Below, in pieces: positions 2,878-35,958 of a stretch of 35,960 nt of DNA (positions are counted from its first letter, which is position 1; every line of letters begins with the position of its first letter). The stretch is taken from the IMG/VR virus record IMGVR_UViG_2541047679_000003; one strand, given 5' to 3'. Made by a program: the position numbers and the translations under genes. Below the pieces are notes generated by a model that was given only the letters and a program-made list of their open reading frames with translations, made no database searches and was not told the DNA's origin. Source of the DNA: a virus. Lineage: Duplodnaviria; Heunggongvirae; Uroviricota; Caudoviricetes.

Positions 2878-2890
2878 GCGTTTAAAAAGC

Positions 2891-3487
2891 TCAGTGGGAG
2901 TGGTGGCTGGAGTTTTCGCCATCAGACAACATACTGCCCGTGGCATGGACATTCCCTTTAATCTCGATATTGCCATGGATGGTCGCGGTAACACCTTCAC
3001 CACCAGAACCCGCCATGCCTCCTTCGTAAATCAGCTTACCCCTGACACGCAGATCTCCGGTAAGTTCGGTTTCCGGTGCGTCAATCGTGGCTTTCTGTGT
3101 TTTCAATACCACATCAGCACCACACTCAATGACAATATGCTCAATGCCGCCCCGGATGATCAGAGTGTGCGTCTTCCGGTTGTAGCTGTACTCTGCACCA
3201 TCAGCAAACCGGGTTCCCCGGATATTTTTGTCACTGAACGGTGGTTTATCGACGTCTGAATACACCGCGCCCAGAATAACACCATCCTCGCCGTTGGCAT
3301 CGAGCAGCACCTCAACCTGCTCCCCCACGTCAGGGAGCCAGTAATCTTTGTTATCCTGGGTATTGCGCTGCAGCACGTTAAGCCAGTTTGTGCGCAGGTT
3401 ATCGCATTCAGGCAGACGAACGCGGGCCTGAACCCTGTCGGCATCAACGGCACTGACCGTACCGACCTGACGAGTGACACCAGTCAT
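2891..3487 (-). CDS. baseplate assembly/spike protein, gpV-like
   Basis: 198-aa ORF, N-terminal region resembling P2 gpV-type spike proteins, Gly-rich C-terminus. Confidence 0.7.
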   Translation of the reverse strand: MTGVTRQVGTVSAVDADRVQARVRLPECDNLRTNWLNVLQRNTQDNKDYWLPDVGEQVEVLLDANGEDGVILGAVYSDVDKPPFSDKNIRGTRFADGAEYSYNRKTHTLIIRGGIEHIVIECGADVVLKTQKATIDAPETELTGDLRVRGKLIYEGGMAGSGGEGVTATIHGNIEIKGNVHATGSMLSDGENSSHHSH

Positions 3488-4638
3488 TTTTTCTTCTCCT
3501 TAATCACCGTCGATGTACTGCCATCCGGGTGATAAACCGTGAGTTTCTGAGTTTTTTGTTTTTTCCCTCTTGTGACTGGCCCCCGTGCCACTTCCAGCTC
3601 TGTGGTGTAGCCGCTGTTACGGTCAAACGCATGGCGGGCAGTGGTTATGAGCCATGGCCCGGATAACTGCCCAAAACTCACCAGTTCAATTTTGTTGCCT
3701 GCTGTCAGTTGAGGTGTTCCCGTCAGCGTCAGGGAGCCGTTCTGCTGGTATTCGTTATGTCTGGCCAGTGCTGAATCCGCTTTAATCCGGGCACTGTCCG
3801 GGTCGCTGACGCGGCTGTTAACTTTAAGTGAGTCAGCGCTGGTAACCTTACCACCTTTGAGCTTTTTGTCGCTTTCACGGGTACCACCATCAGCTTCGTA
3901 GACGATCAGTTTTTTACTGCTGCTTTTCTGGTGTTTTACCTTTGCAGATTTATAGACCCGGTTGATGGTGTCACGCAGGGAAAAGCGGGCCACATCCTGC
4001 GGTTTTAACTGCCTGACCGGCTCCTGACTGCGCAGTGTGGCCAGATGAGAAAAAATCAGCTGGTCACTGACCACTTTCACTGCATAACCATACTCGCTGG
4101 CCAGCCGGCGCAGAAAACCCACGTCGGTTTCAGCATACTGGGTCACCCGGTCGATTCTGATGGACTCAATGCTGCCCACCAGTTTCAGCCGGTGCTTTCT
4201 GGCAATCCGCCCCGCAACAGCTGCCAGCGTGGTGTTCTCAAAACCACGACTGGTTTTAGTCCGCAGGGCACTGTTAACCGAGGTGGCCACCCCACGGATA
4301 GAAACAACGGAAGCGGGCGAACTCACTTCGATCTCGTCTATAGAGAACGTACCGCAGGACAGCAGCTTCTCGCCCTGATAGCCCATTTTCAGCGTCAGCG
4401 TGTCACCCTTGCCCGGATACCATTTATCCAGCCAGCGGCCATCGGTGTCGTCCAGCTCCACCTCAATGGTATCGGACTCATTTTTGATGTTATCGCTCCA
4501 GGTCACACGGGTGACATAAGGCGCGATATCAGAGGTGATGTTTTTCTGCAGATACCACAGAGTGAACACCGGTGTCAGCACATCGCTGACGCCGGTTAAC
4601 GCTGATGTGACTTGCGCAGTGCTGTTTATCTCAGCCAT
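3484..4638 (-). CDS. tail protein, P2 gpD / Mu P-like
   Basis: 384-aa ORF in the position of the late control D-family tail protein. Confidence 0.65.
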   Translation of the reverse strand: MAEINSTAQVTSALTGVSDVLTPVFTLWYLQKNITSDIAPYVTRVTWSDNIKNESDTIEVELDDTDGRWLDKWYPGKGDTLTLKMGYQGEKLLSCGTFSIDEIEVSSPASVVSIRGVATSVNSALRTKTSRGFENTTLAAVAGRIARKHRLKLVGSIESIRIDRVTQYAETDVGFLRRLASEYGYAVKVVSDQLIFSHLATLRSQEPVRQLKPQDVARFSLRDTINRVYKSAKVKHQKSSSKKLIVYEADGGTRESDKKLKGGKVTSADSLKVNSRVSDPDSARIKADSALARHNEYQQNGSLTLTGTPQLTAGNKIELVSFGQLSGPWLITTARHAFDRNSGYTTELEVARGPVTRGKKQKTQKLTVYHPDGSTSTVIKEKKK

Positions 4639-30288: not shown

Positions 30289-30558
30289 ATGAAATCCACC
30301 ACAGGTATCAACCAGCAAATCAGCAAAGTGCAGTCAGCCATTATGGCGCTTAAGGCGACGAACACGGATGTACAAAGCATCACCATCAGGGGTAACAAAC
30401 CTGTCATCCGCGTTTCCCGGAGTGCGCATTGCATGCGCATGCTTGAGCAGGGAAAGGCCTGTTATCTGTATACCGGACATGACCACAGGGGATATTTCCG
30501 TCAGGGCGTTTTCGAACTGCACGGCTGTCGCGTCGTGTGGCCGGAATCTTTGTGGTAA
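30289..30558 (+). CDS. hypothetical protein
   Basis: 89-aa ORF with SD, between the ATPase and gam. Confidence 0.45.
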   Translation: MKSTTGINQQISKVQSAIMALKATNTDVQSITIRGNKPVIRVSRSAHCMRMLEQGKACYLYTGHDHRGYFRQGVFELHGCRVVWPESLW

Positions 30559-30585
30559 TCAGCACAACTGGAGAAATCATAAAAA

Positions 30586-31116
30586 ATGGCAAAAAGTACA
30601 AAAGGTGCAAAACGTATCAAGGCCGCAGCAGCACTCTGGGTGCCGGGGACACGTGAAGAGGTCATTGAGGGAATCAGACTACTCGGTGACGCACAACGTG
30701 AACTGGTCAGGGCTGAAACAGAAATGAATGACGCCATTGGCGATATCACCGCACGTTATGCCCCGCTCACCGAGAGCCTGAAAAAACGCATGGCCGAACT
30801 GCAGTCCGGTATTCAGACATGGTGTGAGGCACACCGTGATGAACTGACCGGCAACGGGAAGGTGAAGTTCGCTAACCTCACCACCGGCGAGGTGCAGTGG
30901 CGAAACCGTCCGCCATCAGTCAGTATCCGTGGGGCGGATAATGTTATTGAATTACTGAGACGTCTGGGGCTTGAGCGCTTTATTCGTGTAAAAGAGGAAA
31001 TAAATAAAGACGCTATCCTGAATGAAAAAGAGGCCGTGAAAAATATTCCCGGTATTTCCATTAAAAGCGACATTGAGGATTTTTCAATAATTCCTTTTGA
31101 GCAGGATGTGCAGTAA
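30586..31116 (+). CDS. gam: host-nuclease inhibitor Gam (Mu Gam family)
   Basis: 176-aa ORF recognisably similar along its length to Mu Gam (MAK..KRIK.AAA..VP..R..V...I...GD.QRE..R.ETEMNDAI..IT...A.....L.....W... Confidence 0.85.
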   Translation: MAKSTKGAKRIKAAAALWVPGTREEVIEGIRLLGDAQRELVRAETEMNDAIGDITARYAPLTESLKKRMAELQSGIQTWCEAHRDELTGNGKVKFANLTTGEVQWRNRPPSVSIRGADNVIELLRRLGLERFIRVKEEINKDAILNEKEAVKNIPGISIKSDIEDFSIIPFEQDVQ

Positions 31117-31213
31117 ACACACCACGTTAATTATTTAATAAAAACATTTTCTTTTTTATTCCGACGTCAGCGCCGCGGGCTTCTGCACGCCGGAAACAGA
31201 GGAGAATTAAATC

Positions 31214-31408
31214 ATGATATTTAAATGTATTCAGTGCGAGAGGGATATAACAGCCCTGCGTTTTCACAGCGCCATCGCCGTGATGTCCGGTAAATACCAC
31301 ATCCCTGCGGTACGCGTCACCCTGGTCTGCCCGTACTGCAGCCAGCATTTTTCGGCAGACGTGCCCGTCATGGAATTCTCCCGCCCTGACAGGGAGGACT
31401 CGCAATGA
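31214..31408 (+). CDS. small zinc-ribbon protein
   Basis: 64-aa ORF with CxxC ... CxxC (CIQC and CPYC); GAGGAG SD. Confidence 0.5.
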   Translation: MIFKCIQCERDITALRFHSAIAVMSGKYHIPAVRVTLVCPYCSQHFSADVPVMEFSRPDREDSQ

Positions 31409-31677
31409 TTACCCCACAGGAAGCACGACAGCGCACCCGAACCCTTGTTGAACACTATGTCAACGAGTGTGAATGCCGCGACCTCACCGATGTGAAGCAC
31501 GTCCTGACGGCGCTAATCAGCATGGCCACACAGGCCATTGTGGCGACCAACGGAAAGGAGGCTGCCCTGCAGGTACTGATGAACACACTCACCCACACGG
31601 CAGAGCATGAGGTGCCGTACCGGATGGAAACCACTGCAGAAGGCGGCCTGCACATCACCGTCAGCCGGAAGCACTGA
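31405..31677 (+). CDS. hypothetical protein
   Basis: 90-aa ORF, ATGA overlap with the previous stop, AGGGAGG SD. Confidence 0.45.
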   Translation: MITPQEARQRTRTLVEHYVNECECRDLTDVKHVLTALISMATQAIVATNGKEAALQVLMNTLTHTAEHEVPYRMETTAEGGLHITVSRKH

Positions 31678-31686
31678 GGGCGCGGC

Positions 31687-31983
31687 ATGACACGAAACAC
31701 CGAACTCACCCGCACCGCCCTCTACCGTCTGGCCCTGCAGCGTTTCGGGCCGGACGCACAGGCCCTGAAACTGGCAGAAGAGGCCGCTGAACTGGCGGCC
31801 AGTGCCGCCCGCAACCTGAACGGACAGGGCAGCGAAAGTGACCTCGCGGCAGAGCTGGCAGACGTGGAAATCATGACAGAGCAACTGCGCCTTCAGGGGA
31901 TGGACCGGCTGATTGACTTCCACAAACAGAAAAAACTGGAACGTCTGGCTGCACGACTGGGCGTGATTTACACGAACGAGTAA
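31687..31983 (+). CDS. MazG-like nucleotide pyrophosphohydrolase domain protein
   Basis: 98-aa ORF with ...LAEEAAELAASA... and ...AAELADVEIMTEQL... resembling the EExxE...ExxD motifs of small MazG proteins. Confidence 0.55.
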   Translation: MTRNTELTRTALYRLALQRFGPDAQALKLAEEAAELAASAARNLNGQGSESDLAAELADVEIMTEQLRLQGMDRLIDFHKQKKLERLAARLGVIYTNE

Positions 31984-31997
31984 CCGGGAGGCATTCA

Positions 31998-32213
31998 ATG
32001 GCTGACATACTCAGGGAAATCACCGCATGGACACTGATTCTTACTGGCCTGGCGACATGCCTCAGTGCGGGGGCAGCCCTGGCTGCCCTGCTGATGCACA
32101 TAACAACACAGTGGTTATGGGAAAAGCTTAAAGCAGCATACAGCCTGAAAGAGCTGTCCGACGCTGTCCGGGCATGGAAACGGCAGAAAAATACCGGAGA
32201 TACAGAACAATGA
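31998..32213 (+). CDS. small membrane protein
   Basis: 71-aa ORF with one hydrophobic TM-like segment (WTLILTGLATCLSAGAALAALLM). Confidence 0.4.
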   Translation: MADILREITAWTLILTGLATCLSAGAALAALLMHITTQWLWEKLKAAYSLKELSDAVRAWKRQKNTGDTEQ

Positions 32214-32893
32214 CAGACCAGAATAAACACATTGAGAAACTGAAAAAGTTGCTGGCGCTGGCCGCATCCGGCAACCCGCACGAGGCCGCTCTGGCACTGC
32301 GCCGAGCCCGTAAACTGATGGATGTTCACGGCATCACACATTCCGACATTGCTATGAGTGATATTGATGAAACCATCAGTCACTACTGGCCGACAGGCAG
32401 TCTCCGTCCACCGCGCTACATGCTGGGCCTGATGAACATCATCCGCGAGGTATTTGGTGTTAACTCCATCATTCACCCCGGCACGCATCCGTCTGTGGGG
32501 TTCTACGGCAACCGGGAACGTGCGGCACTGGCTGCATACACCTGGGAAGTGCTGGCCCGTCAGCTGAAAAAGGCGCGTCAGCAGTATATCAGTGCACAGA
32601 ACAAAAGAATAAAAACCGCCACCCGCACCAGCCGTGGAGACCAGTTTGCCGAAGGCTGGGTGCTGGCCGTTATCAGTGAAATACAGTCCTTTGCCCTGAC
32701 CGATGATGAGCGTGAACTGATGCAGCAGTGGCTGGAACATAAATACCCGCAGACGCAAACCACCAGGGCGCGTAAACCGGGAAGAAGCCGCAATGGCGAC
32801 GCCTCGCGCTATGCGGGGTTTCGTGAAGGGCAGAACGTCAGACTGCACCGCCCGGTCAGTGGGCAGGAACAACAGAAACTGGAGGCCAGATGA
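32210..32893 (+). CDS. hypothetical protein (possibly DUF2786-like N-terminus)
   Basis: ATG at 32210 overlaps the previous stop; N-terminus ...KLKKLLALAASGNPHEAALALRRARKLMDVHGI...; family assignment from memory only. Confidence 0.5.
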   Translation: MTDQNKHIEKLKKLLALAASGNPHEAALALRRARKLMDVHGITHSDIAMSDIDETISHYWPTGSLRPPRYMLGLMNIIREVFGVNSIIHPGTHPSVGFYGNRERAALAAYTWEVLARQLKKARQQYISAQNKRIKTATRTSRGDQFAEGWVLAVISEIQSFALTDDERELMQQWLEHKYPQTQTTRARKPGRSRNGDASRYAGFREGQNVRLHRPVSGQEQQKLEAR

Positions 32894-33120
32894 TTACGCT
32901 ATCAGGTAAAAGCCGGAAATTAAAAGCCTGCCGAATATCTGCCAGATACCTTTTTGCCCGCGCCTTTTTTAAGAACGTCAGGCCGGGGATCACAATTGGT
33001 GTTATTGCCGGACGCGAACAGGTTGAAAAATACATGTCAGGTGCATGGTGGAATAACGACCCTGTCATTGCTGCCCGTAATATTCATATCGAATGGGGAG
33101 GTATTCAGAATGACTACTGA
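32890..33120 (+). CDS. hypothetical protein
   Basis: 76-aa ORF, ATGA overlap with the upstream gene. Confidence 0.35.
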   Translation: MITLSGKSRKLKACRISARYLFARAFFKNVRPGITIGVIAGREQVEKYMSGAWWNNDPVIAARNIHIEWGGIQNDY

Positions 33121-33316
33121 AACCATTGTCTGTTTTCTTTTCTGGTATATGTACGCAGGATCATGCAGCGCAAGACTTCATCGTTCCCTGGGCTATGGCA
33201 GGCACTACGACACCGCGCATTACATCCTGTACATGACCGCCGTCATGTTGTTCTGGCCAGTCACCCTGCCAGCTGCAACCGACATTGTTGCCGACAGACT
33301 GAAAAAAAGGAGATGA
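33110..33316 (+). CDS. small membrane protein
   Basis: ATG at 33110 preceded by GGGGAGG; hydrophobic 68-aa product. Confidence 0.4.
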   Translation: MTTETIVCFLFWYMYAGSCSARLHRSLGYGRHYDTAHYILYMTAVMLFWPVTLPAATDIVADRLKKRR

Positions 33317-33317
33317 T

Positions 33318-33767
33318 ATGCAGAAAAAACGCCTGATACAGCTTATCCATATTGCCCGTAATGAACTGGGTATGGATGAAGACACCTACCGCCAGATGTT
33401 ACAGGGGCTGACCGGTAAAGCCTCAACCAAAGGAATGGATACCACACAACTAAACTGCGTGCTGGAATCCATGAAAAAGAAAGGCTTTCGCGTTAAACCA
33501 GCCAGAAAAGCCAGCTCCGGTTTACCGCTTGATAACCATCCGCAGTCCAGGAAAATTCGTGCGCTATGGCTTGAAATGGCTGCTGCCGGCATTGTTCGTG
33601 ACCGTTCAGAAAATGCATTAGCGAGGTGGATCAAGCGGGAAACGGGCATCAGCGCCCTGCGCTGGCTCAGTACTGAACAGGCAAGCAGTGTTATTGAGAA
33701 ACTGAAGAAGTGGCAGCGCAGAGCTGCGGGAGTCAAACATGAGCGACCTGAATCAGTTTCGAAGTAA
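33318..33767 (+). CDS. GemA-like protein (Mu gp16 family)
   Basis: 149-aa ORF with N-terminus ...LIQLIHIARNELGMDEDTYRQML..., immediately upstream of mor; AAGGAG SD. Confidence 0.6.
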   Translation: MQKKRLIQLIHIARNELGMDEDTYRQMLQGLTGKASTKGMDTTQLNCVLESMKKKGFRVKPARKASSGLPLDNHPQSRKIRALWLEMAAAGIVRDRSENALARWIKRETGISALRWLSTEQASSVIEKLKKWQRRAAGVKHERPESVSK

Positions 33768-34128
33768 GGGGCCGGAACTCCTGGTGGAACTGGCACAGCA
33801 TACCTCTGAGACCGTTCGCGAGATTATTGATATTGAGCCCGAAGTTGCCGACCAGATTGGTCAGGCCGTCGCGAACCGAATGATGCAGGTCTGGGGCGGG
33901 CAAAACGTTTATTTCCCGATGGGCATGGTATGGAAGGTCAGTCAGCGCGACCGGGAAATCTTCAGGGAGTTTAACGGACGCAACCACCACGAACTGGCCC
34001 GCAAATTTGGTGTTTCGCTTCAGTGGGTCTACAGCGTGGTTAAGCGGGTAAGAAAAGAAGAACTGGATCGGATGCAGGGCAAGCTATTTGCTGATGAACC
34101 CGATGCAGATACGGAGAAAAAAGAGTAA
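33739..34128 (+). CDS. mor: Mor/C-family transcription activator
   Basis: 129-aa ORF, the same length as Mu Mor, with a C-terminal HTH-like ...HHELARKFGVSLQWVYSVVKRVRK...; last gene before the prophage end. Confidence 0.75.
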   Translation: MSDLNQFRSKGPELLVELAQHTSETVREIIDIEPEVADQIGQAVANRMMQVWGGQNVYFPMGMVWKVSQRDREIFREFNGRNHHELARKFGVSLQWVYSVVKRVRKEELDRMQGKLFADEPDADTEKKE

Positions 34129-34137
34129 TATCTGCAA

Positions 34138-34215
<78 letters not shown>

Positions 34216-34216
34216 A

Positions 34217-34291
<75 letters not shown>

Positions 34292-34499
34292 TATTGGTGA
34301 CGCACACATCATCCATATCGATAAGCGTGATTGCGCCAATCCCCGTGCGCGCTAGCGCTTCCGCCGCCCAGGAACCGACACCACCGATACCAACCACACA
34401 AATATGCGCGTCAGCAAACAGTTGCAATGCTTTTTCACCATACAGACGCGCTGTGCCACCAAAACGCTGACGCCATGCATCACTAATTACCACAGACAT
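34292..34499 (-). pseudogene. tcdA: tcdA (ygdL/csdL) 5' fragment, interrupted by the prophage
   Basis: Minus-strand ORF begins MSVVISDAWRQRFGGTARLYGEKALQLFADAHICVVGIGGVGSWAAEALARTGIGAITLIDMDDVCVTN (ThiF/MoeB-type Rossmann N-terminus), then runs into element sequence and stops after 10 unrelated codons. Confidence 0.75.

Positions 34500-35881: not shown

Positions 35882-35958
<77 letters not shown>

Follow-up and report, generated by a model that had tools for sequence, protein, structure and literature searches.

What is the block of seven small genes that lies between gam and gemA in a transposable prophage of Escherichia coli, and are its genes devoted to host takeover, to counter-defense, or to transposition? 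Here, we describe the block (31214-33316) and its flanks within a 35,960-nucleotide stretch of viral DNA (the window). The host element is a BcepMu-type (Bcepmuvirus-type) transposable prophage that is very common in E. coli: the DNA was 100% identical to Escherichia phage PhiKM (classified as Bcepmuvirus), and the prophage was present in 629 of 5426 complete E. coli genomes (about 11%, O25b:H4-ST131 strains included), at chromosomal integration sites that differ. Its organization is of the BcepMu type: the late genes run on the other strand, and mor lies at the end of the prophage. The block is flanked by Gam on one side and by GemA and then Mor on the other (Pfam/PGAP); the gam product shares 62% amino acid identity with Mu Gam, and the mor product shares 30% with Mu Mor. 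The features are as follows.

30586-31116, plus strand: gam, left anchor, Ku-like host-nuclease inhibitor (Pfam Phage_Mu_Gam, E 9.9e-41)
31117-31213, plus strand: conserved structured intergenic leader, 97 bp (AT-rich tract, segments seg1 to seg3, GAAACAG, and the Shine-Dalgarno sequence of g1)
31214-31408, plus strand: g1, 64 aa, CxxC...CxxC zinc-ribbon protein (phrog_3401)
31405-31677, plus strand: g2, 90 aa, variable cassette (phrog_3691)
31687-31983, plus strand: g3, 98 aa, MazG-like, all-alpha NTP pyrophosphohydrolase superfamily (phrog_2245)
31998-32213, plus strand: g4, 71 aa, single-pass membrane protein by hydropathy, variable cassette
32210-32893, plus strand: g5, 227 aa, DUF2786 + DUF7168 protein, basic (pI 10.1)
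32890-33120, plus strand: g6, 76 aa, strongly conserved core (identity, dN/dS)
33110-33316, plus strand: g7, 68 aa, small and hydrophobic, with a conserved pair of hydrophobic stretches (hydropathy, allele comparison)
33318-33767, plus strand: gemA, right anchor (Pfam GemA, E 8.3e-41)
33739-34128, plus strand: mor, late-transcription activator, last gene ahead of the prophage end (PGAP "Mor transcription activator family protein")

All seven open reading frames (64, 90, 98, 71, 227, 76, and 68 aa for g1 to g7) lie on the same strand exactly where the original prediction had placed them, and a GGAG/GGAGG-type Shine-Dalgarno sequence precedes every start. PGAP called the same seven coding sequences on identical E. 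coli DNA, and each protein matched one PHROG family end to end (E 1e-34 to 1e-77). Against diverged copies, dN/dS was 0.05 to 0.29 for g1, g3, g5, and g6, which are therefore coding genes and not chance open reading frames; together with the Shine-Dalgarno sequences, this rules out a spurious-ORF reading of the block. A 333-aa antisense ORF (31871-32872) and a minus-strand coding sequence annotated by the PhiKM record in place of g1 are probably artifacts. The tight packing proposed for the block was borne out, with four overlapping junctions (ATGA at g1/g2, g4/g5, and g5/g6; 11 nt at g6/g7) and gaps of 9, 14, and 1 nt at the remaining ones; translational coupling, as also proposed, is probable within the block but does not extend to its start, where the 97-bp structured spacer leaves g1 uncoupled from gam. 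Promoter- and terminator-like sites, scanned over 30500-34400, were not above chance in number, with zero in the block. No Rfam family matched in the block, NCBIfam (release 20) and PADLOC scans of the seven proteins gave chance-level matches only, and literature searches found no functional test for any protein of the block, nor anything relevant on MazG in Mu-like phages.

The block had been likened to the semi-essential early region of phage Mu, and the match in position holds: it occupies the gam-gemA interval, which carries gp11-gp15 in Mu. A tblastn search of g1 to g7 against the Mu early region (E ≤ 1) gave no match, while gam, gemA, and mor do match. We regard the block as probably a variable accessory early-operon segment of PhiKM, the counterpart of Mu gp11-gp15 by position and not by homology. 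Strict conservation was not found; gene content is mosaic among related prophages. One 96-98% identical E. coli prophage is without g4 and has g7 replaced by a 40%-identical allele, g4 is missing from 9 of 38 close IMG/VR copies, and the Klebsiella-type KP12/CFSAN051542 lineage has neither g2 nor g4. Dickeya loci carry g3 plus other unmatched sequence ahead of gemA, two IMG/VR loci carry g3 and g5 only, one Burkholderiaceae MAG carries g5 only, and some natural relatives are without the whole block save a g1-like gene. Such natural losses lend indirect support to the idea that the block may be dispensable for lytic growth. The rapid turnover foreseen for the block thus applies to g2, g4, and g7, but purifying selection has kept g1, g3, g5, and g6 in place from one enterobacterial genus to another, and g5 keeps the same position in distant transposable phages.

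Neither g2 nor g6 had been described in the original prediction. Among the variable genes, g2 had no Pfam or PDB relative, and a sequence search of PDB chains with g2 and g6 gave nothing significant. Two single-pass membrane proteins had been expected. A clear transmembrane segment is present in g4 (Kyte-Doolittle 19-residue maximum of 1.98, residues 14 to 32), but g7 has two short borderline stretches (maximum of 1.52); its two divergent alleles (37-40% identical) retain VCxLFWY and WPVxLP. Conservation is stronger in g6, with 71-96% identity across Escherichia and Klebsiella copies and a dN/dS of 0.15. Of its 43 homologues, all that have a source name come from an Enterobacterales bacterium or from a phage, and g6 is also present in unrelated Salmonella phages.

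The zinc-ribbon assignment of g1 was sustained, as all four cysteines (C5, C8, C39, and C42) persist in homologues down to 30% identity. The C5/C8 and C39/C42 knuckles occur in the window protein, in KP12 and CFSAN051542 (50-55% identity), and in a Symbiopectobacterium homologue (30%), and g1 is predicted from these four cysteines to bind zinc. A relationship to the Com protein of Mu was considered and rejected, the similarity being at the level of the zinc knuckle only: g1 and three homologues did not match Pfam Zn_ribbon_Com (PF10122) at E ≤ 1, whereas Mu Com matches it at 2.7e-9.

For g3, a MazG-like domain had been proposed, and the assignment was examined for loss of the catalytic acidic residues. 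Across 62 diverse relatives (31-68% identity), E31 and D59 are invariant, and E32, E35, and E56 are kept in at least 90%. They are arranged as E31-E32-A-A-E35, 20 residues, and E56-L-A-D59, which fits the MazG-superfamily pattern; the metal-binding motif of that superfamily is, reportedly after Moroz et al. in 2005, EExxE-(12-28 residues)-ExxD. With the full E31-E32-x2-E35...E56-x2-D59 motif kept, g3 is likely a MazG-like pyrophosphohydrolase. It matched phrog_2245, "NTP pyrophosphohydrolase," at E 5.5e-34, and newer PGAP annotation gives it the same name. Curated Pfam models (MazG PF03819, MazG-like PF12643, and PRA-PH PF01503) matched 21 of 62 family representatives at E ≤ 0.01 (15, 3, and 3, respectively); g3 itself fell below every curated threshold, with PRA-PH at E 0.023 (15.5 bits; cut-off, 21.3). 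The AlphaFold2 (AF2) model (pLDDT 87.7) is a two-helix hairpin (helices 9-44 and 50-91), which is not diagnostic alone. Foldseek of this model against the PDB gave no match at E ≤ 1e-3, helical hairpins drawing many spurious matches; its top 32 include DCTPP1, HISN2, 5ie9, 3crc, and 2gta (TM about 0.4-0.5), and MazG structures head both these and the weak PDB profile matches of the family. A sequence search of PDB chains gave nothing significant. The family of ~100-aa proteins is very large (10,508 cluster representatives); close relatives of g3 (E ≤ 1e-3, word-indexed search) occurred only in Enterobacterales prophages, and tblastn against 50,697 phage records matched four, all enterobacterial. 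Cyanophage MazG is reported to prefer dGTP/dCTP, so known MazG substrates are not transferable to g3.

The 227-aa protein g5, previously described by its N-terminus, proved to consist of DUF2786 (43 bits; cut-off, 23.9) and DUF7168 (90.4 bits; cut-off, 25.5), with both domains in 25 of 25 aligned relatives and a conserved motif rich in lysine and arginine. The family spans 178 phage records, and a fold search of BFVD matched 29 proteins of unrelated phages. Members recur in the gam to gemA/mor interval of Enterobacterales, Pseudomonas, Pasteurella, and Burkholderiaceae transposable phages, and the family is found also in lytic, jumbo, and non-transposable phages (phiM12, PhiW-14, SP-15, and mycobacteriophages). 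A sequence search of PDB chains gave nothing significant and no solved structural relative. A KH domain was tried for residues ~52-129 and rejected; the beta-alpha-alpha-beta-beta-alpha fold with a GXXG loop between helices was not found there. An obligate pairing of g3 with g5 was likewise rejected because g5 stands without a MazG-like neighbor in the JBD24, Pasteurella, and Burkholderiaceae loci. In the literature, DUF2786 appeared in gene lists only and DUF7168 was absent.

Upstream of g1, the leader contains three short GC segments (seg1, 31162-31167, CGACGT; seg2, 31170-31175, GCGCCG; seg3, 31187-31192, ACGCCG), of which seg1 can pair with either seg3 or seg2, with compensatory changes present. 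The leader aligns to the gam-gp11 spacer of Mu and to 23 distinct variants, is an element common to Mu-type and BcepMu-type phages, and precedes at least 10 unrelated downstream genes. It matched no Rfam family, scanning viral contigs with a loose AT-rich pattern returned noise only, and nothing relevant was found in the literature on a Mu early-transcript element. That the leader codes for a small peptide was rejected because the window type has CCG where Mu has ATG. Tentatively, and with rather low confidence, we propose that the leader may be an undescribed cis-acting RNA switch (two mutually exclusive hairpins) or a cassette-exchange junction, with the block as one cargo of a cassette-expression platform.

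Could the block instead be a dedicated counter-defense island, in which each protein inhibits one host immune system and g3, like Atd1, hydrolyzes (p)ppGpp or an immune signaling nucleotide? The early position and small size of the genes, their mosaic content between close relatives, the allelic replacement of g7, and the sharing of g6 with unrelated Salmonella phages are all consistent with such an island. There is also a precedent in Atd1, the MazG-like protein of Pectobacterium phage PcCB7V, which hydrolyzes ppGpp and protects against TIR effectors, TIR-STING and retron-TIR included (bioRxiv 10.1101/2022.06.09.495361). We nonetheless judge the island unlikely, given the purifying selection on g1, g3, g5, and g6 across genera. 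The presence of g5 in phages of very different hosts, lytic and jumbo phages included, argues for a general rather than a host-specific target, and g3, with tblastn matches limited to four enterobacterial records, is probably not a close relative of Atd1.

Two narrower alternatives concern single proteins, and both appear less probable still. By one, g3 would be a non-catalytic helical-hairpin protein (an adaptor or inhibitor) with a resemblance to MazG only. Two long helices are all that its AF2 model offers, the protein itself is without a significant PDB or Pfam match, and de novo helical bundles equal the scores of MazG structures in profile search. Against this stand the near invariance of five acidic residues, spaced like the metal ligands of MazG, in relatives as distant as 31% identity, their profile alignment with EEmgE...EElgD of the pyrophosphohydrolase 5ie9, and the MazG-superfamily Pfam matches in a third of those relatives; we find a non-catalytic g3 improbable. 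By the other, which we hold to be about equally improbable, g5 and possibly g1 and g6 would be auxiliary replication or transposition factors and not host-takeover genes. The basic character of g5, its conserved K/R-rich motif, its recurrence in the gam-gemA/mor interval from Enterobacterales to Pseudomonas (JBD24 gp17), Pasteurella (ORF8), and Burkholderiaceae phages, and its standing as the sole gene of that interval in one MAG all point that way. However, g5 is lacking in Mu, in Brenneria relatives, and in some Dickeya-type relatives, the KP12 record has a different 128-aa gene at its position, and the non-transposable phages listed above carry it.

Under the preferred reading, an accessory early-operon segment, the gene layout suggests that, once the prophage is induced or a cell is infected, the early promoter would drive the whole block along with A, B, gam, gemA, and mor and that translation would proceed largely by coupling, with exchangeable cassettes sitting behind the conserved structured leader after gam. 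Most likely, g3 would act as an active, oligomeric, Mg2+-dependent NTP-type pyrophosphohydrolase of the MazG/HisE superfamily, and the nucleotide that it might clear, a (d)NTP or an alarmone like (p)ppGpp, would be one that harms the developing phage. For g5, the probable target is a conserved one, a nucleic acid or a host component, and its action is probably not host specific; g4 and g7 may act at the inner membrane.

With one MazG-type candidate and six other genes without known function, the block itself is ordinary as a discovery: such mosaic sets of hypothetical early genes are typical, and this one is already in databases. Few prophages are as common in clinical E. coli as those of the PhiKM type, so these early genes would be expressed in many pathogens upon induction, and an early MazG-type enzyme could shift alarmone or nucleotide pools, with a bearing on abortive-infection defenses and stress tolerance. 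As a tractable E. coli member of a large pan-phage family, g5 would offer a good entry point for its study. The most interesting item nearby is the leader, the part that might repay experiments; as an RNA switch, it would gate the translation or stability of the accessory cassettes behind gam, and by either of its readings, transposable phages would possess a general cassette-expression platform for which these seven genes are one cargo.

Among known systems, Atd1 and other phage MazG proteins resemble g3, a likely member, in being phage-encoded single MazG catalytic domains, although tblastn of g3 against phage records detected no close relationship to Atd1. The MazG/HisE/DCTPP1 enzymes (5ie9, Bacillus MazG; 2q73, integron iMazG; 2gta, YpjD; 7mu5, human DCTPP1) are likewise ~100-aa single domains with EExxE...ExxD on two long antiparallel helices, and profile and fold matches to them are weak but consistent; g3 differs in being too divergent to pass any curated threshold. 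Mu Com, a 62-aa zinc-finger translational activator of mom, is like g1 in size and in its four-cysteine zinc ribbon, and shares SI[KR]C.NC.K and C P.C..H with the KP12 homologue (pairwise E 0.001); in g1, unlike Com, 14 extra residues are inserted between the knuckles, and the window protein reaches E 0.11 only. The two-domain architecture of g5 recurs at 34-38% identity in Pseudomonas JBD24 gp17, Pasteurella AFS-2018a ORF8, B3-like phages, and Ralstonia Mu-like prophages, positioned as g5 is in the gam to gemA/mor interval, whereas the family as a whole extends beyond transposable phages; these relatives are all uncharacterized, and therefore there is nothing functional to transfer to g5. The closest parallel in layout is Mu gp11-gp15, between gam (Mup10) and gemA (Mup16), which shares with the block its place in the early operon and gene order (Mup10...Mup16-17), its small tightly packed genes, and a similar length (about 1.9 kb against 2.2 kb). 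The phage that carries the block differs from Mu in its BcepMu-type organization (the strand of the late genes and the terminal mor, as above), but in Mu, too, gam is followed by the conserved spacer element found in the leader of the block.

The window is Escherichia coli chromosome with a Mu-like transposable prophage (ORF listing and public genome comparison), in which the late genes lie on the minus strand and the early operon on the plus strand, with gemA and mor last, at the prophage end. Seven genes (g1 to g7) lie between gam (30586-31116; Gam, Pfam E 1e-40) and gemA (33318-33767; GemA, Pfam E 8e-41), all exactly where the original prediction had placed them, and PGAP annotates the same seven coding sequences:

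31214-31408, plus strand: g1, zinc-ribbon protein, 64 aa
31405-31677, plus strand: g2, 90 aa
31687-31983, plus strand: g3, MazG-like protein, 98 aa
31998-32213, plus strand: g4, 71 aa
32210-32893, plus strand: g5, DUF2786 and DUF7168 protein, 227 aa
32890-33120, plus strand: g6, 76 aa
33110-33316, plus strand: g7, 68 aa

The block is real coding sequence, because Shine-Dalgarno sites (GGAG/GGAGG, read from the sequence) lie 5 to 10 nt upstream of all seven start codons, PGAP calls the same genes, all seven proteins have full-length PHROG family matches, and dN/dS measured against diverged copies is 0.05 to 0.29 for g1, g3, g5, and g6, with similar values for gam and gemA. Junctions consist of three ATGA overlaps, one 11-nt overlap, and gaps of 9, 14, and 1 nt. 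Since the plus-strand cysteines are kept and dN/dS is low, a 333-aa antisense ORF (31871-32872, minus strand) and the minus-strand coding sequence that replaces g1 in the PhiKM GenBank record (31127-31405) are probably artefacts. Between 30500 and 34400, no Rfam family was matched, and promoter- and terminator-like sites were no more frequent than expected by chance, with none inside the block. In the slot that kil fills in Mu, with the B-like ExeA-family gene before it and gam after it, is an 89-aa basic protein (30289-30558; phrog_2041, no Pfam match, 35 to 69% identity kept in relatives).

A 2.3-kb stretch around the block matches many E. coli chromosomes, and also Escherichia phage PhiKM (classified as Bcepmuvirus), at 100% identity; it was present in 629 of 5426 complete E. 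coli genomes, with at least 80% of the region covered in 620 of them. The prophage site varies by strain (adjoining ycaL, adjoining napH, or, in the window, inside tcdA), as expected for a transposing phage. At the right end of the prophage, the interrupted tcdA (34260-34499, minus strand, and about 34130-34290) retains only residues 1 to 72 of the 268-aa tRNA ct6A synthase, so this strain may lack the cyclic t6A modification, unless the missing part is preserved intact at another position. Farther out are mltA and a tRNA gene (35882-35955). In E. coli S10EC (NZ_CP076697.1), an IS1B element sits inside the gam-mor region homologous to 30586-34128, extending the match from 3543 to 4320 bp, which shows that disruption of this region is tolerated, at least in a resident prophage.

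Gene losses and an allele swap across the compared loci make the block region a cassette mosaic, with g1, g3, g5, and g6 as a persistent core in the enterobacterial lineage. The rapid turnover anticipated for the block was found for g4, g7, and g2, but not for this core. Among 38 close IMG/VR copies, g1 to g3 were present in all 38 and g4 in 29. One E. coli prophage, otherwise 96 to 98% identical, lacks g4 and carries a g7 allele of 40% identity. The two g7 alleles are only 37 to 40% identical (33110-33316 versus 2603-2818 of compared locus L029), in prophages whose genes next to g7 share 96 to 98% identity, a pattern that points to exchange of alleles or to diversifying selection on this small membrane protein. 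In the Klebsiella-type lineage (Klebsiella phage KP12 and E. coli CFSAN051542), g2 and g4 are missing and the gam position is taken by a DUF3164 gene (locus positions 2881-3492 and 1881-2492, respectively). DUF3164 is unrelated to gam, and the sister lineage that carries it keeps B, which flanks this position, together with g1 and the spacer element, so that the exchange looks like a clean functional-slot replacement. Farther afield, Dickeya loci have g3 and other unmatched sequence before gemA, Brenneria loci only a g1-like gene, and two IMG/VR loci only g3 and g5.

Homologues with 55% and 30% identity retain all four cysteines of g1, which supports the predicted zinc ribbon, and Brenneria and Symbiopectobacterium prophages likewise have a g1-like gene immediately after gam. 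Likeness to Mu Com is confined to the zinc knuckles, and g1 was rejected as a Com homologue (no Zn_ribbon_Com match). Two single-TM proteins had been proposed; g4 has one strong hydrophobic segment (hydropathy maximum, 1.98), but g7 has two shorter conserved stretches (maximum, only 1.52). As part of the core, g6 is strongly conserved, and wherever its homologues have a source name, this is a phage or a bacterium of the Enterobacterales. About 170 bp of g6 (32946-33115) has 72 to 73% nucleotide identity to the unrelated Salmonella phages S9-5 and vB_SalP_ABTNLsp11242 and to a bat-derived siphovirus, suggesting that this cassette moves between phage types. For g2, Pfam and PDB gave no informative match.

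The 97-bp spacer between gam and g1 (31117-31213; core, 31149-31192) can be aligned with its Mu counterpart between gam and gp11 despite unrelated genes downstream, and also occurs in SfMu, Yersinia Mu-like phages, and many IMG/VR prophages. The genes that come after it differ between phages, with at least 10 unrelated ones; it is kept where DUF3164 replaces gam and missing where gam and g1 adjoin directly. Gam loci from phage records and IMG/VR gave 23 distinct variants of the core, which runs from an AT-rich tract (TTTTWATT) through seg1 (YGGCGY), 2 to 3 nt, seg2 (GCGYCR), and 11 nt to seg3 (RCGCCK), followed by 20 to 35 nt to the Shine-Dalgarno site of the next gene. These GC segments allow two mutually exclusive hairpins, in which compensatory changes are seen. 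Across the 23 variants, seg1:seg3 (7 bp) has 87.6% of cells paired, values that 0 of 500 shuffles reached, and one of its pairs is CG in 12, UA in 10, and UG in 1, with zero mismatches; seg1:seg2 (5 bp) has 93% of cells paired, with one pair CG in 11 and UA in 7 and G.U wobbles at another. In the window copy, seg1 has changed from G to A at one position; the z-score for fold energy is only -1.96, and the element matched no Rfam family. Because independent lineages are few, the covariation is only suggestive. The leader may work as RNA, as a switch or a processing site, or as DNA, as a junction at which cassettes are exchanged, and is the lead from this block most worth following.

For g3, Pfam gave only a sub-threshold PRA-PH match (E 0.023), and phrog_2245 ("nucleoside triphosphate pyrophosphohydrolase") matched strongly (E 5.5e-34); a recent PGAP name is "nucleoside triphosphate pyrophosphohydrolase family protein". 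Close homologues come from Enterobacterales only, and at E ≤ 1e-3 a profile picked up 10,508 relatives among 1.84 billion cluster representatives. In an alignment of 62 diverse relatives (31 to 68% identity), Q25, E31, D59, and Q66 are invariant and at least 90% of the sequences retain E32, E35, and E56, giving EExxE...ExxD with a 20-residue spacer, the metal-binding signature of all-alpha NTP pyrophosphohydrolases. The acidic residues of the MazG-like domain originally predicted were thus not lost on alignment. Relatives match Pfam MazG (15/62), MazG-like (3/62), and PRA-PH (3/62); weak PDB matches of the profile include five MazG-type structures (5ie9, 2q73, 2q5z, 2gta, and 1vmg), with the motif aligned on EEmgE...EElgD of 5ie9. 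The AF2 model is a hairpin of two long helices (pLDDT, 87.7), for which Foldseek returned nothing significant; its top-ranked matches, below significance, include DCTPP1, HISN2, Bacillus MazG, E. coli MazG, and YpjD. We conclude that g3 is most likely a divergent MazG superfamily member with its active-site motif intact and a predicted activity and substrate.

The best-supported picture is an accessory early-operon segment, of which the layout of the genes, the motif in g3, and the fold model of g5 are shown. It would share a transcript with A, B, and gam and be translated by coupling, with g3 acting as a putative nucleotide pyrophosphohydrolase and the other proteins as host-takeover or auxiliary factors with presumed targets. 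A non-catalytic g3 is retained as a rival, as is a transposition-accessory role for g5. A pure counter-defence island is likewise retained; Atd1 (bioRxiv 10.1101/2022.06.09.495361), a MazG-like protein with ppGpp hydrolase activity that gives protection from TIR effectors, is a phage precedent, but tblastn of g3 against phage records detected no close relationship to other phage MazG proteins.

As an accessory early-operon segment, the block was described accurately but is ordinary: such phage regions are known, and this one has already been deposited, with names for part of it. For proteins g1 to g7, nothing in the Mu region matched at E ≤ 1, whereas the flanking genes do match Mu (Gam, 62%; GemA, 36%; Mor, 30%). 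The Mu order is gam (Mup10), gp11 to gp15, gemA, and mor, and because gp11 to gp15 likewise lie between gam and gemA/mor, the block is, by position, the counterpart of this part of the Mu semi-essential early region, as originally predicted.
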